Below are positions 1 to 38,560 of a stretch of 38,560 bases of DNA, one piece after another. Positions within the stretch are counted from its first letter, which is position 1. Each line of letters begins with the position of its first letter. This DNA is from a virus (Duplodnaviria > Heunggongvirae > Uroviricota > Caudoviricetes). The position numbers were made by a program, and so were the translations under genes. The DNA lies in IMG/VR virus record IMGVR_UViG_2529292890_000001, positions 1-38,560 of that record. One strand, 5' to 3'. The notes under the pieces were generated by a model. That model saw nothing but the letters and a program-made list of their open reading frames with translations, ran no database searches and had not been told where the DNA came from.

Positions 1-26
1 CGACGAGAAATGTCGGCCCGCATTAT

Positions 27-2270
27 TCAGGCACTTTCGCGAATGGGTTCGATTTCATTCAGCGTATCAATTAACGGTTGCGGCTTACCAATAAGATAAC
101 CCTGCATATAATCGATCCCCAAAGAGAGCACCGCCTCGCGGATCTCTTCGTTTTCAACGTACTCTGCCACTACCCGCATTTTCTTCATTCGCGCCAGGTG
201 GCAAATCGACGCCACTATCTGATAATCCAGACTATTTGACACAATATTGCGGATAAAACTGCCGTCAATTTTAAGCAGATCGGCATTCACATTTTTAAGC
301 CGCGCATAGCTGGCGTAGCCGGTGCCGAAATCATCAATCGCAATCTGGCAGCCTAATTCCTGAAGATGCTGCAAGGTGATTTGCGCCTGCTTAACATTGG
401 TCAGAGCATTACTTTCGGTGACTTCAAAAATAAGTTGCCACGCTTCAATCTGATATTTAGCCAGCAGCTGACTGACTTCAACAGGAAAACGAGCCTGACA
501 TACCGAGGTTGGAGACAGATTAATAGCAAAACGGTGAGCGGGCATCTTCGCTCTGTTTTCAGCCATAAATTGCAGCGTATGCTCAATGACCCACATGTCG
601 ATACTCGACGATAAACCAAATTCGTGCGCGACCGGTAAGAAGCTATCGGGGCTGATCAGTTCATCATTCTCACCTTTCATGCGCAGAAGAATTTCATGGT
701 AGACATCACCACGCATACCGGTAATCGGCTGGGCCATCAGGAAAAAATGGTTGTGTTCCAGCGCCCGCTGTAGCCGATTCATCATCGCGACTTTATCTTT
801 CAATTCGCGTTGCAAATACATTGCTCCGCGACGCTGCATATTTTCCGGGGCGTTGGTCACGATAGAAAGTTCGGCCACTGTATTTAGCTCTCCCAGCAGC
901 AGGTAGATATGATTCACTGGCGAGCGCACATAGCAGTAACTGACGCCAATCTGCGGTTGCATCGGCATTCCATCCCAAAAGAAACGAAATTGCTTGAGAT
1001 GGCTATCCAGTGCGGTAATGCGCTCCTGGTGCGATTCTGTATTCAGCCGCAGCGCGAGATCGTTACCCGAAAGCTGATAAACATCTTCACCCGGTTCCAA
1101 CAATGGTGACAGCCAGTGAGAAAGTTTTTGCTTGTATTGAATCCGCAGCATGATGCCATAATTCTTAACCAGCATTTCCATGCCAGGGATGCGTAAATAA
1201 CAAAGCGCAGACCAGGGGGCATCACGTAACGCGCGATTCAGGGCGCGAACATTTGGCAGATGAACCACCGGGTCCACATACGCAAGCCGCTGAATGCGTC
1301 TGACTACCGCTCGCTGACGGGTTGCCAGTACAGCCATATAATTGACAATAAAAGAGAATACCAGATAACTGGAGGAGGTTATGGTGAGCTGCGTGGTATA
1401 GCCAGGATAAATGGGAATGTAATTTTGATAGCTGTGGATGCTGATCATCAACACGACCGCCCAGAGCAATGAAATCAGCTTATAACCATAGCGCATCGCT
1501 CCCCACATCATCAGGGGCAGCAATAATGACAAGGTGTAATTGGTGCTAAAAATCGTGCTTTTTTCATTTAACGGCATGCATAACAGCAATAGTAAAGCAC
1601 CTAATGCCAGTAGCCAGATTGCGAACTCTTTTTTGGTAACTTTGGCATCAACCTGCTGTTTTAATTGCGAATAATAGCTACGTAAATAAAACGGATTTCG
1701 CACCACCCGAATGATGAAGTAGCACAGCGGGACACCAATCAGATTACCCACCAGCAAGGCCTGATAATTGATTAAGGTCCCGAGGTTAAAGGGCATGACG
1801 CCGACCAGATTTTCTCTGCTCGCCAGTAACCCTACAAACGCAGCAAACTGGAAAAGTATCAGAAACAGCGTTGCAGGAAACACAATCTGCCAGAATAGTC
1901 GCTGGGAAATTAAACGGCTATCACCATGTGAAACGTTGTTACGCCGGGGGGTAAAAACCCTGTAACCGCCCCAACAGAGAATGATAATGATAATAAAATT
2001 AGCCGTTAATGAGAGCGTTTCGTAAAAACCCAGCTCTGCATATTTGCGGACAAAAATCCCTAAGGCGATCCCTGGCAATGCCGCCCAGCTGAAAAACATC
2101 ATCATGCTGATCATCAGTGCCAGTGGCAGATAAAAGAGAAAAACTTCACCGGAAGAAATATGCGCGAAAGTATTAATGTGGGCGAAAATGGGCAAGATTA
2201 AAGAAGGCAGGAACAGCGGAAGCCCCCACCATTTATCACGTATTTTTATATAAGTTGCATTCAGTTTCAT
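27..2270 (-). CDS. pdeF: Cyclic di-GMP phosphodiesterase PdeF (YfgF): N-terminal multi-pass membrane (MASE1-like) domain, degenerate GGDEF, C-terminal EAL
   Basis: 747-aa ORF; hydrophobic N-terminal half; C-terminal EAL-type signatures (QPI..., DDFGTGYASYARLK, EYVENEE); length and neighbours match E. coli yfgF-yfgG-yfgH-yfgI. Confidence 0.88.
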   Translation of the reverse strand: MKLNATYIKIRDKWWGLPLFLPSLILPIFAHINTFAHISSGEVFLFYLPLALMISMMMFFSWAALPGIALGIFVRKYAELGFYETLSLTANFIIIIILCWGGYRVFTPRRNNVSHGDSRLISQRLFWQIVFPATLFLILFQFAAFVGLLASRENLVGVMPFNLGTLINYQALLVGNLIGVPLCYFIIRVVRNPFYLRSYYSQLKQQVDAKVTKKEFAIWLLALGALLLLLCMPLNEKSTIFSTNYTLSLLLPLMMWGAMRYGYKLISLLWAVVLMISIHSYQNYIPIYPGYTTQLTITSSSYLVFSFIVNYMAVLATRQRAVVRRIQRLAYVDPVVHLPNVRALNRALRDAPWSALCYLRIPGMEMLVKNYGIMLRIQYKQKLSHWLSPLLEPGEDVYQLSGNDLALRLNTESHQERITALDSHLKQFRFFWDGMPMQPQIGVSYCYVRSPVNHIYLLLGELNTVAELSIVTNAPENMQRRGAMYLQRELKDKVAMMNRLQRALEHNHFFLMAQPITGMRGDVYHEILLRMKGENDELISPDSFLPVAHEFGLSSSIDMWVIEHTLQFMAENRAKMPAHRFAINLSPTSVCQARFPVEVSQLLAKYQIEAWQLIFEVTESNALTNVKQAQITLQHLQELGCQIAIDDFGTGYASYARLKNVNADLLKIDGSFIRNIVSNSLDYQIVASICHLARMKKMRVVAEYVENEEIREAVLSLGIDYMQGYLIGKPQPLIDTLNEIEPIRESA

Positions 2271-2397
2271 AGATGCTCAGCAGAATCCCCCACATCCTGA
2301 AGGAGGTGTATTCAGACAGGCATCCCACCTGACTTCGAATGATGATTATTCATCACTATAGAGAGCAATGATTCTAAGTGTCATATGAAAGTTCCAA

Positions 2398-2411
2398 TTG
2401 ATATATATCAA
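2398..2411. promoter_or_regulatory. FNR/CRP-family box TTGAT-N4-ATCAA in the pdeF upstream region
   Basis: Perfect inverted repeat ttgatatatatcaa about 130 bp upstream of the pdeF start; pdeF is recalled to be anaerobically (FNR) controlled. Confidence 0.5.
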
Positions 2412-2621
2412 ACAAAATAACCCTGATTAATGAATTATTACGTTTATCATGTTAACTCATCATTATTACATCATCATTGTAAATAATTAAATTAACTTTC
2501 ATAACATTAAAATATGTATCAACTGACGCTTTTTTACATAACGAAGAATTGACCATTTTGTCCTGTTGTGCCTTAATGTAAGTACCGTCCACGGCGTGGG
2601 ACATACTTCAAGGAACCTTTT

Positions 2622-2813
2622 GTGAGTCAGGCAACCAGTATGCGAAAACGACACCGATTTAACAGTCGCATGACCCGTATCGTACTGCTCATCAGCTTTA
2701 TCTTCTTCTTTGGCCGTTTTATCTACTCGTCCGTCGGTGCCTGGCAGCACCATCAGAGCAAAAAAGAAGCTCAGCAATCCACACTCTCCGTCGAATCACC
2801 GGTACAACGTTAG
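2622..2813 (+). CDS. yfgG: Small protein YfgG (63 aa)
   Basis: 63-aa ORF in the conserved position between yfgF and yfgH; hydrophobic central segment. Confidence 0.75.
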   Translation: MSQATSMRKRHRFNSRMTRIVLLISFIFFFGRFIYSSVGAWQHHQSKKEAQQSTLSVESPVQR

Positions 2814-3123
2814 CGGTTACCTTCTCCACTCTCACAGAACATAACGGCACCTCGCTGTCGGATGCTTTTGCTCTTTGAGATTATCAAAGCGGCAGATATT
2901 CTTTCATCTTAAATTTTACGTCTTTGTTCTGACTGAAGTTCATCCTGTTCGGCTGCGAAATAAATACATCATTAATACATATGTTGTGATGATGTATTTT
3001 TATAAATTATTTCCCGCATGAATTTTAATAAATTTAATCTATTCCTTTATACGCAATACATTTACTTTCCTCTTTTGATGATCTTAAATGTCTCATTTTT
3101 CGTAATGTGTATAACAAGGAATA

Positions 3124-3642
3124 GTGATGAAATTTAAAAAATGTCTTCTGCCTGTGGCAATGTTAGCGTCATTCACTCTGGCAGGATGCCAGTCAAATGC
3201 TGATGATCATGCCGCCGATGTTTATCAAACCGATCAACTGAATACCAAACAAGAAACTAAAACCGTTAATATTATTTCCATTCTTCCCGCAAAAGTTGCC
3301 GTAGACAACGCCCAAAATAAACGGAACGCACAAGCCTTCGGCGCGCTTATTGGCGCTGTCGCTGGCGGTGTTATCGGCCACAACGTCGGGTCTGGCAGCA
3401 ATTCCGGAACGACGGCAGGTGCAGTTGGCGGCGGAGCTGTAGGCGCGGCAGCGGGTTCGATGGTGAATGATAAAACCTTAGTGGAAGGTGTTTCTTTAAC
3501 ATATAAGGAAGGCACCAAAGTGTATACCTCCACCCAGGTGGGTAAAGAGTGCCAGTTTACGACAGGTTTAGCCGTTGTTATTACCACGACGTATAACGAA
3601 ACGCGTATTCAGCCAAATACCAAATGTCCTGAAAAGAGCTAA
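3124..3642 (+). CDS. yfgH: Outer-membrane lipoprotein YfgH (glycine-zipper)
   Basis: 172-aa ORF; signal peptide with lipobox LAGC; Gly/Ala-rich glycine-zipper segment. Confidence 0.8.
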   Translation: MMKFKKCLLPVAMLASFTLAGCQSNADDHAADVYQTDQLNTKQETKTVNIISILPAKVAVDNAQNKRNAQAFGALIGAVAGGVIGHNVGSGSNSGTTAGAVGGGAVGAAAGSMVNDKTLVEGVSLTYKEGTKVYTSTQVGKECQFTTGLAVVITTTYNETRIQPNTKCPEKS

Positions 3643-3657
3643 TAATCAGGAGGAGTC

Positions 3658-4197
3658 ATGAAGAAAGTTTTTCTTTGCGCCATCTTAGCCTCCTTAAGCT
3701 ATCCGGCTATCGCCTCATCATTGCAGGATCAACTCTCGGCTGTCGCAGAAGCGGAACAGCAAGGTAAAAATGAAGAGCAAAGGCAGCATGACGAATGGGT
3801 CGCGGAGCGCAACAGGGAAATCCAGCAAGAGAAGCAACGTCGCGCAAACGCCCAGGCCGCGGCTAATAAAAGAGCGGCAACGGCAGCAGCGAATAAGAAA
3901 GCTCGTCAGGATAAACTGGACGCCGAAGCCACTGCGGACAAAAAACGCGATCAAAGTTATGAAGATGAGCTACGTAGCTTAGAGATTCAGAAACAAAAAC
4001 TGGCGCTGGCGAAAGAAGAAGCCCGCGTCAAGCGCGAAAACGAATTTATCGATCAGGAACTGAAGCACAAAGCTGCGCAAACCGATGTGGTGCAATCTGA
4101 AGCTGACGCAAACAGAAATATGACTGAAGGCGGTCGCGATCTGATGAAAAGCGTGGGCAAAGCAGAAGAGAACAAATCGGACAGCTGGTTTAATTAA
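3658..4197 (+). CDS. yfgI: Uncharacterised secreted coiled-coil protein YfgI
   Basis: 179-aa ORF with signal peptide and charged K/E/R/A/Q-rich low-complexity body; RBS AGGAGG upstream; conserved position. Confidence 0.8.
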   Translation: MKKVFLCAILASLSYPAIASSLQDQLSAVAEAEQQGKNEEQRQHDEWVAERNREIQQEKQRRANAQAAANKRAATAAANKKARQDKLDAEATADKKRDQSYEDELRSLEIQKQKLALAKEEARVKRENEFIDQELKHKAAQTDVVQSEADANRNMTEGGRDLMKSVGKAEENKSDSWFN

Positions 4198-4235
4198 TCG
4201 ATGTAAGTAACTTCAAGCCTATAATTCTTGAAGAT

Positions 4236-4268
4236 AAAAAACCCTCTGTAGTAACAGAGGGTTTTGTT
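4236..4268. terminator. Bidirectional rho-independent terminator (yfgI / guaA 3' end)
   Basis: A5, stem ccctctgt, loop agta, stem acagaggg, then TTTTGTT; A-tract on one side and T-tract on the other. Confidence 0.7.
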
Positions 4269-4291
4269 CATTCATAGTGCAGGGATCAAAA

Positions 4292-4306
4292 TCATTCCCA
4301 CTCAAT
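4292..4306 (-). other. guaA: Putative guaA 3'-terminal fragment (…I-E-W-E-stop) marking the prophage attL junction
   Basis: Minus strand reads ATT GAG TGG GAA TGA with an in-frame stop directly upstream, so only the last codons of a GMP-synthase-like C terminus are present; phage-like sequence starts at about 4307. Confidence 0.5.
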
Positions 4307-4416
4307 TATTCACGGACACCATAACCAATTGAGTGATAACATTTTTCCAAAGATGAATTTTTCCCATACCGTTTTATATACCGTCACCGGAAATCAGTAC
4401 CATGAAAAATGCCATG

Positions 4417-4899
4417 CTATCTGGTCAGGGTGTCGTACTGTTTTTCGCAGACTCTTCCGGCTTCGGCTGCCCGGTCAGCATACTCTGCCAGTTGTCTGTT
4501 TCTCTCGAGAGATTTGCTGAGCACGTCGGCAAGCAAAACTCCGGTGTCTGCGGCTGACGACCCAGCGCCGACAATGGCGTTATAGTGCCTGAGCTGCTCA
4601 CGGATGGCAACGAGCTGTTGCTGCAACCGGCCAGCGCGAGCGGCAGCATCAAGAGCATCATTGCGCGCCTGGTCGATCCTCTGCTGCGATTCACGTTCAT
4701 TGATCGCTTTCTCCTGTTCGTAGTGCTGACGAACTCTCTCATCTTCAGTTTTGCGGTCTTCTTTCGCCTGAGCATACCCGGCGTCGTACTGACGACTGCC
4801 GTGCACATTCCAGGCAACAACTCCTGATGTGGCAAGAACAGCAAGCATCGCCACGATAATCAAATGTTTCCAGTATGCTTTTACGAATGCCCAGATCAT
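4417..4899 (-). CDS. i-spanin (Rz-like)
   Basis: 160 aa; N-terminal TM helix then charged coiled-coil; start overlaps the endolysin stop (ATGA); contains an embedded +1-frame lipoprotein ORF. Confidence 0.75.
4425..4700 (-). CDS. o-spanin (Rz1-like lipoprotein) embedded in the Rz frame
   Basis: Internal ATG at 4700 preceded by AGGAG; signal peptide with lipobox LALAG-C; Pro-containing mature part; alternative starts at 4661 or 4658. Confidence 0.55.
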   Translation of the reverse strand: MNVNRSRGSTRRAMMLLMLPLALAGCSNSSLPSVSSSGTITPLSALGRQPQTPEFCLPTCSANLSRETDNWQSMLTGQPKPEESAKNSTTP

Positions 4900-5525
4900 A
4901 CAGCCAGCACCTTACTGGCAATGATGTATCGGGCGCGGCGGTCATCAATGCCGTTCCGGCCACCATTGATAATCAGAGTTACACGTGCAATATCGCCGGT
5001 ATACTTCATGCAGCCTTTGCTGGAGAAGAACCAGGCCGCGCTACGGGCCGCGTATTCGTCCTGTGCCAGCAGTTCAGGATTCTCCAGCAGGTCAACTTTC
5101 AGACCGTTTCCGCAGTCACGATAGTTATTCAAGCCGGTAATCTGGATAAGTCCGCGCCCACGGTAGTTCCAGCCATCACCAGGGGCATTGTTCCCCATGC
5201 GTTTGCTGTACACCAGATTGGCGATAGCGCGCTGTCGCTCAAGTGGTAATGCTGCTTCACCAGCACGGCGACCCAGTGCATTAGCCTGCCCCTGGGTGAG
5301 ACGCCCAGCCCGAACGAAGTTAGCCAGTCCGGTGACACTGTAGTTGAAATTTTCCTGCAACCGGGTGAAGCCCCCAGACTCATGCCCGACCTGAGCAATA
5401 AACATTGCCTGATCTTCGGGTTTGCTGATTCCAAACTCTTTCATCGCAGAAGTTATATGCAAGAACCAGCGTTCGGCCAGCGCCTCGCTAATACCAGCAG
5501 CACGCTGGAATTGTTTAATCTCCAT
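4896..5525 (-). CDS. Endolysin, glycoside hydrolase family 19 (chitinase-like)
   Basis: 209 aa; motifs QVGHESGGF and [19 protein letters not shown] typical of GH19 phage endolysins. Confidence 0.8.
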
Positions 5526-5823
5526 GTTTAGACCTCGTTATTTTGAAAATTTGAACGACGTTACCGCGAGTTTTAAGAACCGCAGCAAGCATGACAGCGT
5601 TAATAATGACCTCAGATAAATCCACAGCCATTGGCGTACGTAACCAGATTGCATAGGCGACTCGAACAGGAATACTGGCCGCAGCAACAATCAGGAAATA
5701 AGCAAGCCATCCTCCCCACCTTCGGTGTTGAGAGCCGTTACGCCGGAATGTGACAACGCGAATTGCTATGCCAGTGCAAATAACTGCATTGGTGATAAGC
5801 AAAAAAAACTCATGCGTTACCAT
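5515..5823 (-). CDS. Small multi-pass membrane protein in the lysis cassette (holin partner or antiholin candidate)
   Basis: 102 aa with 3 predicted hydrophobic helices; sits between the holin-like and endolysin genes with overlapping ends. Confidence 0.45.
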
Positions 5824-6214
5824 CGTCTTTTCTCCCCGGAATTAACTCGCGTGGATTATCGGAAAGGTGATAGAGCCATATACCAATACGCACAGCGACA
5901 ATTGCTGACACGAATGCGCCTGCAGAGAAAACAATCCCTTTTTCAAAAGAGTCCTGCGTGATGGTAGGGATCAGGCTAGCTATGCCGATAAGAATTGATG
6001 CTGCTGGTTTGTAAAAGAGAAGGCCGCAAAGAAAGCTGAGCATCGACATGAGCACCCGGCGACGGATGGGGTACTCTACTGCAGAGGTAACAAAAATTAC
6101 CGCCCCAGCCAAAGCCCCTAAAGCAACCTCCGGAGGGACACCTGCAATAACCGCAGCAAGAGAACCAAAACTAAGCAACTGATTTAATTGCTCACTTGTT
6201 ACTTGAGCAGACAT
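5810..6214 (-). CDS. Putative holin
   Basis: 134 aa with 3-4 hydrophobic helices and charged C terminus; strong RBS (AGGAGA); first gene of the cassette upstream of the endolysin. Confidence 0.55.
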   Translation of the reverse strand: MSAQVTSEQLNQLLSFGSLAAVIAGVPPEVALGALAGAVIFVTSAVEYPIRRRVLMSMLSFLCGLLFYKPAASILIGIASLIPTITQDSFEKGIVFSAGAFVSAIVAVRIGIWLYHLSDNPRELIPGRKDDGNA

Positions 6215-10116: not shown

Positions 10117-10845
10117 CTATCGTTTCGCTTTGTGCTCATCCCAGCACGTTTTGCACCATGCCATTAAGCCGTCCGCATTTTGATTATTAGGGTAAAAGCT
10201 GGTTCGTTTTCTGCGGACATTACAAATTGGGCACCACTTCATATGGCGTGTATTCTTTGGGCCATCGAGACACCTTGCACACCACTTAGTCAATCCATCT
10301 GGATTTTTTGACGATTTCCTGAATTTTTCATATGGAAGGTTTATTCTGCATCGCAAGCACTGCTTGCTACCACTTGAAACTCTGTTAGCTGATTCTTCTT
10401 TTGGCGGCGATACAGAAGGTATTCTTGCTGGCTCTGATACTGCCTGAGGTGCTTTTTTAGATGACTGAGACGATATGTCATCACCAGGGAATCTTCCATG
10501 ATATGCCGGACGCGTTGACACTCCAGGTGGAAGCTCAGCTGTAAACGGCTTTGGCTGAATCAGTTGCCTCTCTTTTGCTAACTCCTGCTGTTTATAATAT
10601 GTCTGGATTACCGCACTATCATAAGCAGGAGGTGCGGAAATATTAGGCGCATTACCTCCAGTTTTTTGAAACTGAGTAGAGGTGTGTTCTATCACCTGTG
10701 TACGATTAATCGTTATCTCCCCATCTTCGGTCTTTATCGTTTTGTTATGATTAACGACCGTACGATCAGAGATCTTAGTCTTGTTCTGGTTGATAACGTA
10801 AATAATCACCGCAACCACACCAACAACTATCCAGAAAACTTCCAT
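10117..10845 (-). CDS. Membrane-anchored protein with C-terminal tandem CxxC zinc-ribbon repeats; function unknown
   Basis: 242 aa; N-terminal TM helix, S/T/P/Q-rich linker, C terminus with CLRC...WCARC...WCPIC...WCKTC; RBS GAGG; two palindromic motif copies upstream. Confidence 0.6.
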   Translation of the reverse strand: MEVFWIVVGVVAVIIYVINQNKTKISDRTVVNHNKTIKTEDGEITINRTQVIEHTSTQFQKTGGNAPNISAPPAYDSAVIQTYYKQQELAKERQLIQPKPFTAELPPGVSTRPAYHGRFPGDDISSQSSKKAPQAVSEPARIPSVSPPKEESANRVSSGSKQCLRCRINLPYEKFRKSSKNPDGLTKWCARCLDGPKNTRHMKWCPICNVRRKRTSFYPNNQNADGLMAWCKTCWDEHKAKR

Positions 10846-10881: not shown

Positions 10882-10957
10882 ATCTTGCTTTCAGGTGATC
10901 AAGCGTTAAACGCAATCAACCAAATACGGTTGATTTTTATATTTATCAGCGTTTATC

Positions 10958-10974
10958 ATTACCTTTGCGGTAAA
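10958..10974 (-). promoter_or_regulatory. Dispersed palindrome copy H: ATTACC-TTTGC-GGTAAA
   Basis: Second copy 93 bp from copy B in the same intergenic region. Confidence 0.5.
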
Positions 10975-11063
10975 TTTACATCGCACTCCTCTTGTGCCAT
11001 AGTAATCGAGCACTGGCAAAATCCAGTGCCGGGATTTGCACCCCGGATTACTAAAAGGCGCAT

Positions 11064-11086
11064 ACCACGCCAGACGTGGTTTTTTT
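11064..11086 (+). terminator. Candidate intrinsic terminator in the leader upstream of the BRO-N gene
   Basis: accacg-ccaga-cgtggt followed by T7. Confidence 0.4.
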
Positions 11087-11244
11087 ATGCGTATAGCACA
11101 GTCATGCCAGAATTATGGTGGGACGTGCAGGGGCACCGAAAGGTGCGCCGGGTCCTTTTAGCCGGTAGTGCAAACCCTGTACGTCTCACCACCAACGAGA
11201 TTTGCACCTCAGGTGGTGATTAACCATACTAAAAGGTGATTGCC

Positions 11245-11931
11245 ATGACTGCTAACGTAACCCCATCTGTTTTTCATTTTGAATCAGAAGCAACCATTCG
11301 AGCCATTGTTATTGATGGAAATCCTTGGTTTGTTGCCAAAGACGTTATTAAAGCTCTTCAACTGACAAACCCCACCATGTCAATCAAATCTCTTGATGAT
11401 GATGAAAGGGCTAAATTTAACTTAGGTCGTCAAGGCGAAACCAATATTATCAGCGAGTCAGGCCTCTACACACTGATCCTCCGCTGCCGCGATGCGGTGA
11501 CACCAGGCACTATCCCCTACCGCTTTCGTAAATGGGTTACAGGTGAGGTTCTTCCTCAGATCCGCCGCACCGGAAGTTACATTAAAAACTCGCTCCCGCA
11601 GGAAGAACGCATAAAGATGGTTGCCGACCAGGTAGCCAACGCCACAGCATCAGCAGTGATGCAGGCGATGAAGATAGAGAACAAAACCTACAGTGCCCCA
11701 CTGAAGCCCGGCTACCGCAGCCTGATTCACTCGCCGTCTGGTGTTCTCGGCCTGACGGAGAACTCACTGCTGATGAATCTGTTGAACCAGTTACAGGAAG
11801 ACGGGCACGACGTATCGGGCGCGGCGGCGGAGCTGACCACCATGTTCTGCTACATCGTCGGTGTGAGCAAATGCCTGCGTGATATCCAGACTCACGCGGA
11901 GTACATCAACGACAAAGCAGGATTCTTCTGA
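11245..11931 (+). CDS. BRO-N domain protein (antirepressor-like, two-domain)
   Basis: N-terminal FHFESEATIRAIVIDGNPWFVAKDVIKAL is a BRO-N signature; C-terminal domain paralogous to ORF 9837-10094; ATG at 11245 with RBS AAAGGTGA (track ORF uses GTG at 11236). Confidence 0.65.
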   Translation: MTANVTPSVFHFESEATIRAIVIDGNPWFVAKDVIKALQLTNPTMSIKSLDDDERAKFNLGRQGETNIISESGLYTLILRCRDAVTPGTIPYRFRKWVTGEVLPQIRRTGSYIKNSLPQEERIKMVADQVANATASAVMQAMKIENKTYSAPLKPGYRSLIHSPSGVLGLTENSLLMNLLNQLQEDGHDVSGAAAELTTMFCYIVGVSKCLRDIQTHAEYINDKAGFF

Positions 11932-12002
11932 CGGGCGGCGGCACAGGGATGTGCCTTTAAATAATTCTGTACAGATTGCAGACTGGGGGTGAATAGAGTA
12001 CT

Positions 12003-12019
12003 ATTACCCCAAAGGTAAA
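12003..12019 (+). promoter_or_regulatory. Dispersed palindrome copy K: ATTACC-CCAAA-GGTAAA
   Basis: 26 bp upstream of the plus-strand small membrane protein gene; spacer orientation flipped relative to copies ahead of minus-strand genes. Confidence 0.5.
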
Positions 12020-12044
12020 CCGAGAGTTTACATGAGGGGGAAAC

Positions 12045-12233
12045 ATGGAAATCAACATCATTACATTGCTGAAGGCCATTATTGGCGGAGCGGGCTTAGG
12101 CTTTGCCCTACCAGGCGGATTATCTTTCCTGCTTCCTGCTTTTACTGTTACAGCTGGGATAGCCTATGCATTTGCTGTGGCTGGTGCTGTTGCACTCCCT
12201 GCTATCTATGCCGCAAAGAAGTTAGCCAACTAA
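12045..12233 (+). CDS. Small hydrophobic Gly/Ala-rich membrane protein (62 aa)
   Basis: Two predicted TM segments with GxxxG/AxxxA packing motifs; RBS GAGGGGG; palindromic motif 26 bp upstream. Confidence 0.5.
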   Translation: MEINIITLLKAIIGGAGLGFALPGGLSFLLPAFTVTAGIAYAFAVAGAVALPAIYAAKKLAN

Positions 12234-12234
12234 A

Positions 12235-12567
12235 ATGCCTGATTTATCTTGGCTTGCGCCCAGAGATGCACAGCAATTGACAAGGTTTTATTTCATACTG
12301 TGCATTGCTTATCTTGCTGTTCATCTGATATGGGATGCCGTTTGCAAAGATACGCCTCCTTTTTCTTTGGATAAGTTGCAATACAAGATGAATGAGGTTT
12401 ATTCATCATCTACTTTTGCAACCAGCGCATTCTTCATTGTTATTCTGTTCGATATGAAGAATCCACTGAGAACTTCAGATGCTTTCATATTCCCATTAAT
12501 TATTGCTGCTCTAACTGGCTTTATGATCTCATTATCAGCAATAGTGCCAAAGAAAGTAAATAACTGA
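12235..12567 (+). CDS. Membrane protein (110 aa, 3 predicted TM helices), translationally coupled to the preceding gene
   Basis: Start 1 nt after the upstream stop; hydrophobic helices; followed by an intrinsic terminator. Confidence 0.5.
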   Translation: MPDLSWLAPRDAQQLTRFYFILCIAYLAVHLIWDAVCKDTPPFSLDKLQYKMNEVYSSSTFATSAFFIVILFDMKNPLRTSDAFIFPLIIAALTGFMISLSAIVPKKVNN

Positions 12568-12570
12568 ATA

Positions 12571-12592
12571 AGCCCGCGTTGCGGGCTTTTTT
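12571..12592 (+). terminator. Rho-independent terminator
   Basis: agcccgc-gtt-gcgggct followed by TTTTTT. Confidence 0.7.
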
Positions 12593-12664
12593 ATGGACGA
12601 AACAAAAGTCAGTGCTACACTCATTGACGCCACATCGAGGTGGCTTATAGATGGAAATGTCACA

Positions 12665-12826
12665 ATGAAAAAAGCATTTGCTGCACTGTTCGTTTTGTTG
12701 TCTCTGGTAGCTTCAACTCAGGCCTTTGCCGGTCGTTGTCAGCACGACAGCGACACTGCTGCTGACGGCTCCCGCTGCGGTGGGCGTTCTGCGGATTCCC
12801 GCCCGGGTGGCGGTGGCATTCGTTAA
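12665..12826 (+). CDS. Small secreted or periplasmic Cys-containing peptide (signal peptide plus ~31-aa mature part)
   Basis: Internal ATG at 12665 gives MKKAFAALFVLLSLVASTQAFA followed by GRCQHDSDTAADGSRCGGRSADSRPGGGGIR; the longer track ORF begins inside the upstream terminator. Confidence 0.4.
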   Translation: MKKAFAALFVLLSLVASTQAFAGRCQHDSDTAADGSRCGGRSADSRPGGGGIR

Positions 12827-12848
12827 AAACAAGGCCGCGAAAGCGGCC
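12823..12848 (-). terminator. Rho-independent terminator ending the minus-strand ejection-protein/lipoprotein operon
   Basis: Minus strand: ggccgc-uuuc-gcggcc followed by UUGUUUUU. Confidence 0.6.
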
Positions 12849-12857
12849 TGTGACATG

Positions 12858-13238
12858 TCACGCAACGCAATTATTACCGCGCCATGTAACATTTTTAATA
12901 ATCTTATCAGCACCAAACTCAACGTAAACAGAGCAACTGAAATGGAGTGTATAACCGCCATCAGTTGTTGCGTATGTGTTTGAATATATAGTATTACCAA
13001 TTAGATTAGACGTAGTATTATACGTTGTGGTTTGTGGTACGTTATAACTACCAGAGCTTGAGTAAACATACACTCTGTTTCCATCTGGAGATGTAAGCTC
13101 TCCCTGAGGATACCCCCACTGCTGAACCATTGCGTCTATACTCTGCCCGCGCCACGTAAGCATATTTCTTTCAAACTGTGCAGCTGACTGGCATCCAACG
13201 AGAAGCATAAATCCAAAAATCAAAAATACTTTTCTCAT
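12858..13238 (-). CDS. Prophage lipoprotein (126 aa), possible superinfection-exclusion or envelope factor
   Basis: Start at internal ATG 13238 (RBS AGGGG) gives MRKVFLIFGFMLLVGC lipobox; mature part has a BamE/OmlA-like pattern (…QQWGYPQGELTSPDGNRVYVY…) and is S/T/N/Y rich. Confidence 0.5.
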   Translation of the reverse strand: MRKVFLIFGFMLLVGCQSAAQFERNMLTWRGQSIDAMVQQWGYPQGELTSPDGNRVYVYSSSGSYNVPQTTTYNTTSNLIGNTIYSNTYATTDGGYTLHFSCSVYVEFGADKIIKNVTWRGNNCVA

Positions 13239-13285: not shown

Positions 13286-13474
13286 TTATTTTATTATTCT
13301 TCCGAACAATACAATTCCGAATACTACAAAGCCGAACCATGCCGCTGCACGCAACAGAGATTCCAATTGAAACCCATTTTTATCAAAATGTATGAATAGC
13401 ATAAAAACGCTGCACATATTAGTACAATAAAAGTTATTTGAACCATCATATCTCCTTTTATTGCGGAGTGACAT
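13286..13474 (-). CDS. Possible small membrane protein (62 aa)
   Basis: ORF with hydrophobic C-terminal segment overlapping the end of the upstream virion gene; weak support. Confidence 0.25.
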   Translation of the reverse strand: MSLRNKRRYDGSNNFYCTNMCSVFMLFIHFDKNGFQLESLLRAAAWFGFVVFGIVLFGRIIK

Positions 13475-15932
13475 CCTGTGGTCGCCACCAGTATGTCTGG
13501 TTAAACTCTTTCTTCGAACGTTGCTCCATTTTACGCAAATAGCCTGGTGAAAAATACTCCTGCATCTGGTTAAAGATCATGTGATCGAGAGCCGCCTTCA
13601 AGTACCAGAGATTCGCACCAGGCATCAAACCTTTCCCCAGCTTCACCAGATCACCACCAGTCTGCTCACTCTTCCCTTCCACAGCATTTAACGGTATGCC
13701 CTGAGCAATCTTCACTACGTCATCAACCAGACCAGCTACCGGGCCAAGCATCGACGCCAGCGCGCCGCTTCCGTACCTAGTGTGATCTGACAATAAAAAG
13801 TCACCGTAAAGGCCAAGACCACCACCTTTCAGTAGAGCACCAAGCCAGAATTTTGCGGCATCTTCTCCTGTCATCTCTCGAGGATTACGACCAGACGCAA
13901 GGTCGTTAAGTTGCTGCGACAAAGCGCCAAGAATGGTCGTACTGGCAATAAACGTCGCAATATATGCCGCACGCCCACCAGCAGACGGCATACCCATAGC
14001 GCGTGACCAGTGACGCATAACAACCGAGATAGGGAACGATTTAAACAGGAAAACACTTCTCGTTAATTCACCTTTCCATGTTCCACGCTGAATACCAGAA
14101 CCGGTTATCAGTTGCTCACGTGCTCCCGGTGTAATAACAGCCATATCAACTTCTTCAGTTACGGCACCGAGCAGTTTACGCATTGCCTCAAATTTCACGC
14201 GTTCAGGCTCACCAAGATGTTTAACTGCTGAATCAGGGATACGCATAATGCTTTCCGGTGTCAGCATCGTATTATTACCGTTCCCCCAGTCCTCCTGTTT
14301 CGCCAGCTTCCATACGCTCCAGTCTGTGTCAGTAATCCCTTTGCTTTTCAGGATACGAAAATCAGAGTCATCGAGGCTACGAAGGTCTGGTGTCCGTGAC
14401 ACTACTTCTCCCAGGCTTCCCATCATGGTTACGCCATAGGCGCGCTTGTGCGCATCTGACCATGCTGTAAGCCCACTGGCACGCATTACCGCCGTTGCCG
14501 CCCAACGAGACACTGACGGCCCCATATTATCCATCGCCCAGCGGTTAACGCTGCCAAGTAGAGATTCCATCGCCAGACCAGCGCGGCGCGCCCGCGCAAG
14601 TTCTGTACGGTTCGTTGGGTCCATAGCTTCAAGCTGGTTGCGGAATAACTGGTTCATTGGAAGGTTGGTAACCTTCGCAGACAGATACATGGTTCCAAGA
14701 TCAGAGAACGATGACAGCAACGCGGATCCGAGTCTGCTGGCAACCAGCCAGTTGCGGATATTGTCAGACCATCGCGCGATGTGCGGATTCGCTACAGGCT
14801 GTGTCTTTCCGGAAATAAAGTTGTACAGATTCTCTGTGTTGTTCGCCAGCCGCTCGACTTTACCGGTTTTACTCGGGTTAGCTGTTGCCGTTTCTGCCTT
14901 CACCTGATCAAGAAGAGAGCGGAAAACATGATCGGGGTTTGGGCCATATGTTTCCACCAGTGCAATATCTTTACTGATACCTTCCAGGTGACCGACCATG
15001 ATTTCCCATAGAGAGCGATCGCCATAAAGTTGCTGATATTGCAGATAGGAATCTGCATCTTTGAAATGTATCTGTCGTGATGCATTACCACGGTTAGCAC
15101 GTGCGCCGGAAATTCGCATTCCGGTATCAGTAAGCTTATTCAGCCCACCAGTAGCGATCGTGTTATAAGCCTCTCCAAGAAATGAAGACAACTCGGCATC
15201 GTTCATCAGTTGTCCATCGGCTCGGATATAATATTTGCGATCCAGCCTACCTATAACATCGCTAACCCACTTATCCTTTGATACTGCCCCAACCTTTTCC
15301 ATAGAATGATGTTGAGGGATCCCCCAGTTTTCGAGATAGCCAATGTCCCCACCAGCATCATTAAACCGGCGGCGCAGCAGCTCTGTAACTTCTCTCCACG
15401 CCTTAGCACCGTTTCTTGCTTTAGCATTGCCAGTAGTTTGCCCCCGCATTTCATATACCAGGTCACGTACGCCCGCTTCATCTTCAAACAGACCAAAAAA
15501 GCGAGGATCAACTGCTTCGAATGCCTCCTGCAATTGACTCAATGCATAATCACGGGTGGCTTTTGTTCTGGATTCAACAGAGAGGAAATTAGATTTACCG
15601 TCTGCATTAAAAGCTATAGTACGGTTAAGAGCGCCAAGTTTCCCATCAGCCCCTTGATAGCTATTGATAAATTTATCCAATCTCTGACGCGCGGCTATAG
15701 TGAGAGCCACACGACGTTTCTTTAATGCCGCTTCTCGCTGTAATTCTTCAGATGCCAATTGTGCTGCTCGATATAGCCGCTCTGATTCGGAAAGTTGTCG
15801 CCACGACATAGGGTCATCACGAGCAATGGAGCGCATATTTCGATAAATGCGGTCTTCAATGTTCTGTATTTCTCGCGCCGTTAACATGCGCTGCGCCGCC
15901 TGCTGAACCGCTTGTATACATTCCTGTCTCAT
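13458..15932 (-). CDS. Large internal virion / DNA-ejection protein
   Basis: 824 aa; last of a run of large genes after the tail genes, where podoviruses encode ejection/core proteins; RBS GAGAGG. Confidence 0.5.
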   Translation of the reverse strand: MRQECIQAVQQAAQRMLTAREIQNIEDRIYRNMRSIARDDPMSWRQLSESERLYRAAQLASEELQREAALKKRRVALTIAARQRLDKFINSYQGADGKLGALNRTIAFNADGKSNFLSVESRTKATRDYALSQLQEAFEAVDPRFFGLFEDEAGVRDLVYEMRGQTTGNAKARNGAKAWREVTELLRRRFNDAGGDIGYLENWGIPQHHSMEKVGAVSKDKWVSDVIGRLDRKYYIRADGQLMNDAELSSFLGEAYNTIATGGLNKLTDTGMRISGARANRGNASRQIHFKDADSYLQYQQLYGDRSLWEIMVGHLEGISKDIALVETYGPNPDHVFRSLLDQVKAETATANPSKTGKVERLANNTENLYNFISGKTQPVANPHIARWSDNIRNWLVASRLGSALLSSFSDLGTMYLSAKVTNLPMNQLFRNQLEAMDPTNRTELARARRAGLAMESLLGSVNRWAMDNMGPSVSRWAATAVMRASGLTAWSDAHKRAYGVTMMGSLGEVVSRTPDLRSLDDSDFRILKSKGITDTDWSVWKLAKQEDWGNGNNTMLTPESIMRIPDSAVKHLGEPERVKFEAMRKLLGAVTEEVDMAVITPGAREQLITGSGIQRGTWKGELTRSVFLFKSFPISVVMRHWSRAMGMPSAGGRAAYIATFIASTTILGALSQQLNDLASGRNPREMTGEDAAKFWLGALLKGGGLGLYGDFLLSDHTRYGSGALASMLGPVAGLVDDVVKIAQGIPLNAVEGKSEQTGGDLVKLGKGLMPGANLWYLKAALDHMIFNQMQEYFSPGYLRKMEQRSKKEFNQTYWWRPQDVTPQ

Positions 15933-29436: not shown

Positions 29437-29525
29437 ATCAATGACTCCGTACGCAATTAAATTATTACCAATTTAACCACATATGATTTATTTATCGTAG
29501 AAGGTTGACATTTAACGCGTTAATT

Positions 29526-29542
29526 ATTACCTTTCAGGTAAC
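29526..29542 (-). promoter_or_regulatory. Dispersed palindrome copy C: ATTACC-TTTCA-GGTAAC
   Basis: About 90 bp upstream of the small ORF/portal operon; half-site ATTACC (29464-29469) plus AACCACATATG (29475-29485) nearby; a TTGACA hexamer at 29505-29510. Confidence 0.55.
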
Positions 29543-29863
29543 CAAAGGGCTCATTCTGGTTACTAACCTGACTGGCTTGTCGTTAAATTAAACAGGTGGA
29601 GTGAGCTTTTATTTTGAGCAGTACGGCGTATGGCACATGCGCCGATAGCGGTCTGGATACGTTTAAGGGGCACCCTCCCTTGCTCGGGCAAACGAACCAG
29701 GTAGCCGGAATGTGCAAGTCGAGCGGTTTTATTCCGCGCACGGGGATTCACCATCCCGGCGATTCGGTGTGACGCCTCGGAAGAGACGAGGGTACAACGA
29801 TGAGAGCATTTATGGAGCCGCGACAAAGTGTGGCGCCTTAACAGGCTAAGTGCTCTCAGCGTT

Positions 29864-29940
29864 GTGGCATTAGCTCAGTTGGACAGAGCAACCGCCTTCT
29901 AAGCGGTTGGTCGCAGGTTCGAATCCTGCATGCCACGCCA
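29864..29940 (+). tRNA. tRNA-Arg (anticodon UCU), phage-borne
   Basis: 77 nt; acceptor GTGGCAT/ATGCCAC; D arm GCTC/GAGC; anticodon stem accgc/gcggt with loop CTTCTAA; T arm gcagg-TTCGAAT-cctgc; discriminator G plus CCA. Confidence 0.85.
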
Positions 29941-30103
29941 GAATCACGCCTAAGGACCGTGATGCCAGAAGTTCCAGGTGCTTGGCGGGGATAGTTTCCC
30001 TTGAAGGACTATCACCGCCCTTTTTACAGCAGGACGCCATTGCGATGACTTCATGCTGTAAACCCGTACAGCCACGGAAGGCATAACTCATTGCTTCCAG
30101 TTC

Positions 30104-30127
30104 GCCCGGTTCGCCGGGCATTTTTTT
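30104..30127 (+). terminator. Rho-independent terminator after the tRNA
   Basis: gcccgg-ttcg-ccgggc followed by A then T7. Confidence 0.6.
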
Positions 30128-30138
30128 AAGGTGAGATT

Positions 30139-30513
30139 ATGAACGACCAGCAAATCGAAAAAGAAATCGTTGAGAAAGGCAAAACCGCTCCGCGTGTAAC
30201 ACCCGAGAAAATTGAAGGCCTCATTTGCAGTGAGCATTTTTTCACTGCTGCGCAGGGTGACCACCAGGCTAAAGAAGATGACCTTATTTATAATCCGGAG
30301 CCTTATGTCGAAGCCACCCCTGATGCTCTGCACCTTCTCACTTTCTGCGTATTGGTACTGAAGAATGGCTTCACCGTTACCGGAGAGAGTGCCTGTGCAA
30401 GCCCGGAAAACTTTGATGCAGAAATTGGTCGGAAGATTGCCCGGCAGAATGCTGTAAACAAAATCTGGATGCTCGAAGGTTACTTGCTGAAGCAGAAGTT
30501 AAGCGAGCAATAA
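30139..30513 (+). CDS. Phage Gp49/Gp66-like protein (function unknown)
   Basis: 124 aa; recalled family pattern (KGKTAPRVTPEKIEGLI...TVTGESAC...); RBS AAGGTGAG; plus strand against the minus-strand structural operon. Confidence 0.45.
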   Translation: MNDQQIEKEIVEKGKTAPRVTPEKIEGLICSEHFFTAAQGDHQAKEDDLIYNPEPYVEATPDALHLLTFCVLVLKNGFTVTGESACASPENFDAEIGRKIARQNAVNKIWMLEGYLLKQKLSEQ

Positions 30514-38508: not shown

Positions 38509-38529
38509 AATAGATATGAAAAGAAACCC

Positions 38530-38560
<31 letters not shown>

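Follow-up and report, generated by a model that had tools for sequence, protein, structure and literature searches.

Coupled genes for two small membrane proteins form an exchangeable cargo in an epsilon15/phiV10-like prophage of Escherichia coli

Analysis of a stretch of 38,560 nucleotides (nt) of prophage-bearing DNA (IMG/VR virus record IMGVR_UViG_2529292890_000001, positions 1 to 38,560; hereafter the window) revealed two coupled genes encoding small membrane proteins, here termed A and B, which are followed by a third small gene, C, and lie between the gene encoding a Bro-N antirepressor (11236-11931, plus strand) and the minus-strand operon of injection proteins (13458-15932 onward). The window matches E. 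coli FDAARGOS_1303 at 100%. Apart from a stretch of host chromosome at its left end, it is a K1 prophage of the epsilon15/phiV10-like (Uetakevirus) type that carries an endosialidase tailspike and is integrated at guaA, whose 3' end has been published as the attB used by such phages (PMC9782041). The features of the A-B locus are as follows.

11976-12004, plus strand: promoter-like element (TTGCAG, 17-nt spacer, TACTAT), read from the sequence, in conserved backbone
12004-12018: palindrome TTACCCCAAAGGTAA (TTACC-N5-GGTAA), probable operator of a CI-like repressor
12019-12568, plus strand: exchangeable A-B cargo segment, delimited by blastn breakpoints against five relatives with other cargos
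12045-12233, plus strand: gene A, 62 amino acids (aa), with a strong Shine-Dalgarno (SD) sequence, GAGGGGG, 4 nt upstream
12235-12567, plus strand: gene B, 110 aa, starting 1 nt past the stop codon of A and without an SD sequence of its own
12570-12596 (stem 12570-12588), plus strand: intrinsic terminator with an 8-bp stem, 6 GC pairs and a T-run, in backbone common to all cargos
12665-12826, plus strand: gene C, 53-aa precursor, with a signal peptide at 12665-12730 and a mature part of 31 aa at 12731-12823

A sequence-only reading of the window had described the lengths of A and B, the 1-nt gap between them, the terminator behind them and the palindrome in front, together with a signal peptide and a 31-aa mature peptide with two Cys for C, and all of these are confirmed, as is the orientation of the three genes against the late operon, since they lie on the plus strand and the structural and injection operon on the minus strand. 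The same reading took the three genes as one cassette, which does not hold: the exchangeable unit comprises A-B (12019-12568) only, and C belongs to the conserved backbone.

Regarding the proteins, A is a glycine-zipper protein with about two transmembrane (TM) segments; residues 1-58 are hydrophobic (Kyte-Doolittle window means of 1.2-1.8) and the C-terminus is KKLAN. The conserved core reads K10...G15-A-G-x-G-F-A-x-x-G-G-L-S-x-x-x-P-x-x-T-V-T36, including G24, P31 and T34, while the second hydrophobic half is variable. A matches phrog_13406, a PHROGs family without assigned function, and intact homologs with 61-98% identity are present in Klebsiella, Enterobacter, Cronobacter, Obesumbacterium and Serratia. 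B matches phrog_36716, which has no assigned function either, and homologous proteins occur in Salmonella diarizonae, Enterobacter, Raoultella, Yersinia and Citrobacter. A profile of B, searched exhaustively, retrieved 83 cluster representatives at E<=1e-3 (52 of these at <=1e-10), all of about 100-150 aa and aligned over their full length, and the wider family also derives from Erwinia, Providencia, marine (TARA/JGI) and other metagenomes. Its signature is FY...(H/N)xxWD...TPxF...K...SxxTFxSS...PhhhAGxxG...SP, and the polar residues W33-D34, K51, S58, T60 and S64 of B are near-invariant. The AlphaFold2 (AF2) model of B based on a 33-sequence alignment (pLDDT 86, pTM 0.75), which supersedes an earlier model from a shallow alignment (pLDDT 65), has three long helices (residues 12-36, 45-72 and 82-101), and B is predicted with confidence to be a three-helix membrane protein.

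Both open reading frames (ORFs) are intact in all of the approximately 30 related loci examined, which come from Escherichia, Klebsiella, Cronobacter, Kosakonia, Serratia, Yersinia and other genera; the earlier concern that the frames might not be conserved in related prophages is thus met by intact copies there and well beyond. Between the copies of E. coli, Klebsiella and Cronobacter, the proportion of synonymous differences (pS) is 0.6-0.89 and saturated, and that of non-synonymous differences (pN) is 0.05-0.10. In comparisons that allow dS to be measured, dN/dS ranges from 0.04 to 0.27 in A and from 0.04 to 0.2 in B. Judged by these substitution patterns, A and B are shown to be genuine genes under strong purifying selection, and spurious ORFs are excluded by the intact frames in all these loci and by the low dN/dS.

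B follows A directly in every locus fetched, including those in which gene callers missed B. Among about 30 loci surveyed by script, a 1-nt gap predominates and a few loci have gaps of 6-12 nt; in Providencia the two genes overlap by 8 nt. Since the arrangement is nearly always stop-N-start, B is probably produced by re-initiation after translation of A. The association extends to distant relatives: every distant homolog of B examined is preceded by a small hydrophobic ORF with the motif K-x-h-h-(G/A)-G-x-G-x-G, and when a hidden Markov model (HMM) of enterobacterial A was searched against all 490 ORF segments of the distant-B loci, the ORF upstream of B ranked first, with E=3.5e-12 in marine contigs, 1.6e-8 in Providencia and about 2-4e-6 in TARA (the match was weak at locus L019 and none was obtained at locus L023). 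Pairwise distances of A and of B are correlated (Mantel r=0.88, with 0 of 5,000 permutations as high), and this correlation, taken with the choice of the upstream ORF by the HMM, implies that A and B have long been inherited together and is the strongest evidence for joint action. As judged from these comparisons, the pairing is shown to predate the Enterobacterales.

None of the proteins A, B and C has a match in Pfam, NCBIfam (E<=1), PADLOC or PDB sequence profiles beyond noise, in agreement with the earlier statement that nothing here is assignable to a known family, and at E<=1 no match to PADLOC-DB v2 was found for these three or for the neighbouring lipoprotein. Literature searches on the protein accessions, the PHROG identifiers, DUF4760/DUF2335 and glycine-zipper prophage proteins returned nothing on these genes. 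A-B is a previously undescribed but widely conserved family.

Within the prophage, A-B occupies a slot with base-precise limits. Homology to the five relatives with other cargos stops at 12018-12023 and resumes at 12566-12570, placing the limits between 12018 and 12019, at the last base of the palindrome, and between 12568 and 12569, at the terminator stem. GC content across B is 0.375-0.405 compared with 0.55-0.59 in the flanks. The flanking backbone was detected in about 484-504 of 5,426 complete E. coli genomes and A-B in 18 of them, all at >=99% identity. At least six other cargo types occupy the slot among relatives, and in an even sample of 60 records the commonest is a small ORF with a YafO-family toxin (Pfam YafO_toxin). 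The alternative cargos are listed below.

Locus L002, 3626-4325: pair of a 59-aa protein and a YafO toxin
Locus L038, 1219-1805: overlapping pair of 72 and 125 aa
Locus L039, 937-1569: 210-aa protein
Locus L040, 901-1702: 108-aa partner and a DUF2335 membrane protein
Locus L041, 1876-2352: pair of 55 and 52 aa
A further cargo: DUF4760 protein

Pfam and PADLOC searches with these cargos were mostly uninformative except for YafO_toxin and DUF2335. The backbone upstream of the slot, comprising a hairpin (GGCACAGGGATGTGCC), the TTGCAG-17-TACTAT element and the palindrome, is conserved for every cargo type, and in phiV10 the entire slot is deleted together with gene C.

Variable presence between backbone genes, deviating GC content and transcription signals around the cargo are the usual marks of accessory cargo, and all three are seen at the A-B slot. 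It thereby resembles phage morons and cargo hot-spots such as P22 immI/sieA, between the ejection-protein genes and the tailspike gene (PMC10883804), which likewise form extra transcription units between backbone genes with deviating GC content, a promoter-like element and a terminator, are present or absent among close relatives and alternate with other cargos at the same site. Unlike in the usual morons, exchange at the A-B slot affects the coding cargo alone, with base-precise boundaries, and leaves promoter, operator and terminator in place as parts of the backbone; a further difference is that the slot promoter bears an operator of the prophage repressor, which makes expression in the lysogen doubtful. 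No sequence similarity of A-B to P22 SieA or SieB, T4 Imm/Sp, HK97 gp15 or other exclusion proteins was detected, the only PHROG matches being 13406 and 36716.

Beyond this prophage, A-B is found in the same position, between antirepressor and injection genes, in Uetakevirus-like prophages of E. coli, Klebsiella pneumoniae, Cronobacter, Kosakonia and metagenomes, and slot-borne copies are very common in K. pneumoniae prophages. In Serratia fonticola, A-B adjoins the guaA 3' end, and an integrase fragment accompanies it in some copies but not in others; in Providencia, where the pair is widely conserved, it lies near guaA beside hipBA. These guaA-adjacent copies are most simply read as remnants of decayed prophages. 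A third kind of context is a syntenic chromosomal site between CorA-family (corA/zntB-like) and SBP_bac_5 (mppA-like) genes, shared by eight Yersinia species and Sodalis, at which A-B is vertically inherited and phage-free with dN/dS of 0.04-0.15. Vertical inheritance in Yersinia without a phage implies that the activity of A-B is independent of phage functions. The pair is also present in an island that carries an Eco57I-like restriction-modification (R-M) system together with an ImmA/HTH pair; in marine contigs it has a truncated integrase and an insertion sequence (IS) element as neighbours, and in Aeromonas veronii it is borne by a 4.9-kb qnrS2 plasmid (pHN21SC2322-1 type). As a separate observation, a gene with an ABM domain (antibiotic biosynthesis monooxygenase-like) lies just upstream of A-B in S. 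fonticola (L004-L007, 5324-5620) and in unrelated marine contigs (L042, 2700-2993); this proximity is probably a coincidence and possibly a loose association.

Regarding regulation, the palindrome at 12004-12018 recurs across the window, which has 8 exact copies and 3 with one mismatch where 0.67 would be expected by chance. On both strands, almost all transcription units of the prophage, the late operons included, have a copy at their 5' end. The copies are at the following positions.

Window: 85, 9745, 10866, 10959, 12004, 29527, 32672, 32690, 36492, 36554 and 38493
Beyond the window (locus L046): 6714, 6762, 7473 and 7535

Beyond the window, three palindromes lie in the 154-bp region between divergent genes encoding an HTH (CI-like) repressor, WP_000836293.1, and a cro-like protein, and two just downstream of the repressor gene. 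Because of these positions, the palindrome is assigned as the probable operator of the CI-like repressor of the prophage. By analogy with the logic of P1 C1, a single repressor would apparently act on operators dispersed genome-wide in a Uetakevirus.

At the slot, the first base of the palindrome is also the last of the -10-like hexamer, and the expected transcription start falls within the palindrome, a geometry that is repeated at the antirepressor promoter (10930-10959). Since only 26 nt separate the palindrome from the ATG of A, there is no room for a promoter of A-B's own, and with an operator over the start of the only promoter able to feed it, the pair is probably silent in a stable lysogen. 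Probably, then, A-B shares the regulation of the antirepressor and would be kept off in the lysogen and expressed when the prophage is induced or a cell has just been infected. The palindrome is also found upstream of A in Klebsiella, Cronobacter and metagenomic prophages; it is absent from the chromosomal and plasmid copies, which must therefore be regulated otherwise. Upstream of the Bro-N gene, Rfam models detect c4-a1b1 targets (10997-11049), isrK (11010-11086; 67 bits, gathering score 50) and C4 antisense RNA (11111-11196; 77.8 bits, gathering score 45), and the segment 10997-11196 on the plus strand is a P1/P7-type immI antisense control unit in a podovirus-type prophage. Rfam matches inside the cassette (MicC, Trp/Thr leaders and mir-6132) were rejected, as they lie far below the gathering scores and reflect the terminator hairpin.

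The reading preferred here, at a rough probability of 0.42, is that A-B is a self-contained two-protein conflict module of the toxin/partner type, located in the inner membrane and riding as exchangeable cargo of the slot. In such a module, A would oligomerise via its small-residue glycine-zipper faces into a membrane-perturbing or channel-like assembly and act as the toxic or effector component, and B would bind A and neutralise or gate it, with coupled translation fixing the ratio of the two proteins. In the prophage, expression of the pair would start along with that of the antirepressor, upon induction or in newly infected cells. The module might then serve as a selfish conflict element, through addiction or through abortive or exclusion-type protection against competing phages and elements. 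This role is suggested because the slot favours small two-gene cassettes that include a bona fide toxin family, and because of the mobile and defence-related neighbourhoods, the plasmid copy and the retention at guaA; conversely, it would explain the spread of A-B over prophage slots, integrase islands, R-M and toxin-antitoxin (TA) neighbourhoods and a small plasmid as well as its persistence at guaA.

Among known systems, two adjacent genes always inherited together are typical of the TA class, and A-B behaves in this way. The slot that it shares with the YafO TA toxin family and its hipBA and R-M neighbourhoods further liken it to toxin/partner systems and to prophage-borne membrane defences. 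Lambda RexAB and gp30/gp31 of mycobacteriophage Sbash (PMC6426596) are likewise two-gene units borne by prophages and include a membrane or channel-like component. Compared with defences of the RexAB type, A and B are both small integral membrane proteins, and they have no homology to RexA or RexB. The suggestion in the sequence-only reading of a superinfection-exclusion or toxin/immunity-type module thus survives in part: strict pairing, co-evolution, the slot shared with YafO, the islands and the plasmid speak in its favour, while the likely silence of A-B in the lysogen weakens exclusion of the classical, lysogen-expressed kind.

Several observations weigh against the conflict module. Searches of Pfam, NCBIfam and PADLOC give no homology support for toxicity of A, for pore formation or for binding between A and B, and fold searches returned generic matches only and nothing specific. 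B is not encoded by any sequenced phage isolate in the INPHARED set. The putative toxin gene comes first, an order that is atypical for type II TA systems. The slot promoter, itself a prediction, matches 7 of 12 sigma-70 consensus positions and was not called in a consensus scan, and if the operator fully represses it, a resting lysogen would be left unprotected by A-B. Finally, vertical inheritance at one syntenic site in eight Yersinia species and Sodalis would be compatible, too, with a normal physiological role in the membrane.

A more far-reaching form of the conflict module, namely that A-B founds a new and widespread two-component family of membrane toxin and immunity proteins (abortive infection or addiction), mobile across Gammaproteobacteria and marine bacteria, and that the Uetakevirus slot is a 'plug-in' expression site of operator, cargo and terminator, whose cassettes are exchanged base-precisely and fired only on induction or infection, is somewhat unlikely as a whole.

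Less probable still is a function in the lytic cycle of the phage itself, with A as a small channel of the viroporin or pinholin kind that B regulates. Made early after induction or infection, the two would tune membrane potential, the timing of lysis or the exclusion of secondary phages within the productive cycle. The timing would be comparable to that of T4 Imm/Sp or of P1 icd in the immI operon, and it accords with the CI-type operator over the start of the only available promoter and with the location of the slot directly downstream of the P1-type immI unit (a1/b1 targets, C4 RNA and Bro-N antirepressor). The size, the two hydrophobic segments and the glycine zipper of A are typical of small channel formers. 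Pinholins or class II holins (phage 21 S21-68) and viroporins (HCV p7) offer themselves for comparison, and A resembles them in length (about 60-70 aa), in its pair of hydrophobic segments, in a helix face with a glycine zipper and in a basic C-terminus. It differs from pinholins and class II holins, however, in lying outside the lysis cassette, in a C-terminal tail of only five residues, in the lack of holin-family matches in Pfam and PHROG and in its conservation at non-phage loci. A complete lysis cassette is present elsewhere in the prophage (4417-6214), and the slot is dispensable and polymorphic, being absent in phiV10 and holding A-B in 18 of about 484 E. coli prophages. Purifying selection on the pair at phage-free chromosomal sites and its persistence on a plasmid likewise argue against a lytic role.

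The same chromosomal copies speak for an ordinary, non-conflict membrane function occasionally captured by phages, for example a two-subunit channel or transporter or a complex for stress response or envelope homeostasis, which is judged slightly less probable than a lytic role and unlikely overall. Synteny and vertical inheritance at low dN/dS in eight Yersinia species and Sodalis, the wide conservation of the pair in Providencia and the near-invariant polar residues of B would all suit a physiological complex. Against this stand the very patchy distribution across Enterobacterales, with most E. coli lacking A-B, the repeated mobile contexts (prophage slot, integrases, IS, R-M, hipBA and small plasmid) and the lack of similarity to any transporter family in the searches made.

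It is quite improbable that A is exported as a class II bacteriocin- or microcin-like peptide, whose double-glycine leader would comprise 15 aa up to G14-G15, with B as its membrane immunity protein. As in many class II operons, a gene for a small Gly/Ala-rich hydrophobic peptide is coupled to one for a multi-TM protein of about 100-110 aa, the pair occurs on mobile elements including a small plasmid, and the N-terminal sequence of A, MEINIITLLKAIIGG followed by AG..., invites the comparison. The GG is not conserved, however, being replaced by AG in Sodalis, in the L017/L037 locus group and in marine homologs, and the N-terminal segment is hydrophobic, lacks the conserved acidic residue of such leaders and is as conserved as the core, so that the N-terminus of A is not a double-glycine leader. 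Genes encoding a C39-peptidase ABC exporter or a membrane fusion protein (MFP) were absent from the more than 12 A-B neighbourhoods inspected (prophage, chromosome, island and plasmid), and no match to Bacteriocin_IIc, microcin or immunity families was obtained in Pfam or NCBIfam at E<=1. The idea of a double-glycine leader or microcin was rejected on the non-conserved leader and the missing exporter, and A most likely stays in the membrane of its producer. The least probable explanation, inhibition of a host envelope enzyme as a form of lysogenic conversion, draws on epsilon15, a phage of the same group that blocks the host O-antigen polymerase with small hydrophobic proteins, and on the location of the small hydrophobic products near tailspike and injection genes, but A-B also occurs in Klebsiella and Cronobacter prophages with unrelated tailspikes or depolymerases and at phage-free Yersinia loci, and the operator position speaks against lysogen expression.

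If A-B proves to be a membrane module of the toxin/partner type, an unannotated family, without an entry in Pfam, NCBIfam or PADLOC, would be added to the conflict systems borne by phages, and gene callers often miss one half of it, gene B. The catalogue of slot cargos (the YafO pair, the DUF2335 pair, DUF4760, the 210-aa protein and the pairs of 72+125 and 55+52 aa) provides further candidate conflict genes, most of them unannotated. The exact limits between operator, cargo and terminator show how Uetakevirus-type phages exchange accessory genes, and the slot suggests that such cargo can be controlled directly by the prophage repressor, an arrangement uncommon among 'lysogenic conversion' genes. 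K1 lineages of extraintestinal pathogenic and avian pathogenic E. coli (ExPEC/APEC) carry the prophage, and related prophages are very common in K. pneumoniae. If A-B is an ordinary small membrane complex, it would be of modest interest only.

Gene C is an independent moron of the backbone, separate from A-B, and its product is predicted to be a Sec-exported 31-aa peptide with a disulfide loop. The signal peptide MKKAFAALFVLLSLVASTQAFA consists of MKK and a hydrophobic core with predicted cleavage between AFA and G; the mature peptide has Cys25 and Cys38, forming a C25-C38 loop, and a near-invariant GGRSADSRPGG tail. Among 19 homologs the signal region is variable while the mature part, C25-x12-C38-GGRSADSRPGG, is almost invariant, a pattern that fits an exported, disulfide-closed peptide of which the mature part is functional. 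C matches phrog_14503 ('membrane associated protein'), records of the family at NCBI are named 'transmembrane anchored protein', and members are found in Escherichia, Shigella, Klebsiella, Cronobacter, Salmonella, Citrobacter, Pectobacterium and Dickeya. C is present with every cargo type of the slot and absent from the chromosomal A-B loci, and Pectobacterium has it within a phage of another type, where it is surrounded by structural genes and lies on the opposite strand. A possible resemblance of its DSDTAADGSRC loop to Excalibur/EF-hand-like Ca-binding sites was dropped, as it has no Pfam support at E<=1.

Regarding the remainder of the window, positions 1-4400 are host chromosome with pdeF, yfgG, yfgH and yfgI, the prophage begins at the lysis cassette at about 4417, and the integrase gene and guaA lie past the right end. 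The neighbouring features are given below.

4417-6214: lysis cassette with two holins, a GH19 endolysin and DUF2514, about 6 kb from A-B
10117-10845, minus strand: 242-aa protein, phrog_6762, between tailspike and antirepressor
12832-12849: GC-rich hairpin between the convergent gene C (plus) and lipoprotein gene (minus), with a T-run on the minus strand
12858-13238, minus strand: 126-aa lipoprotein with lipobox LLVGC, phrog_3716, convergent with gene C

As its T-run is on the minus strand, the hairpin at 12832-12849 is mainly a terminator of the lipoprotein gene. The position of this gene is variable in relatives, with a Rap1a-like protein (a type VI secretion system (T6SS) immunity family) in Cronobacter and unrelated proteins in Klebsiella, and it looks like a second accessory slot beside the injection genes. 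The 242-aa protein combines a TM segment at its N-terminus with two Cys-rich, zinc-ribbon-like repeats at its C-terminus, the repeats having weak matches to the Stc1 domain and to endonuclease VII/Lar-like PHROGs, and a palindrome lies 20 nt upstream of its ATG. At the end of the window (38517-38560), the last approximately 40 bases (…atgaaaagaaacccccggggggg…) are unlike the otherwise identical NZ_CP070045 (…atgaaaagaccgccgggtggcggtc…), and the homopolymer run there looks like an artefact or padding. A second counter-oriented unit on the plus strand is located at 29503-30513, between the portal and terminase genes, with a perfect TTGACA -35 element, a palindrome at 29527, a tRNA-Arg(tct) gene at 29864-29940 and an ORF of 124 aa at 30139-30513.

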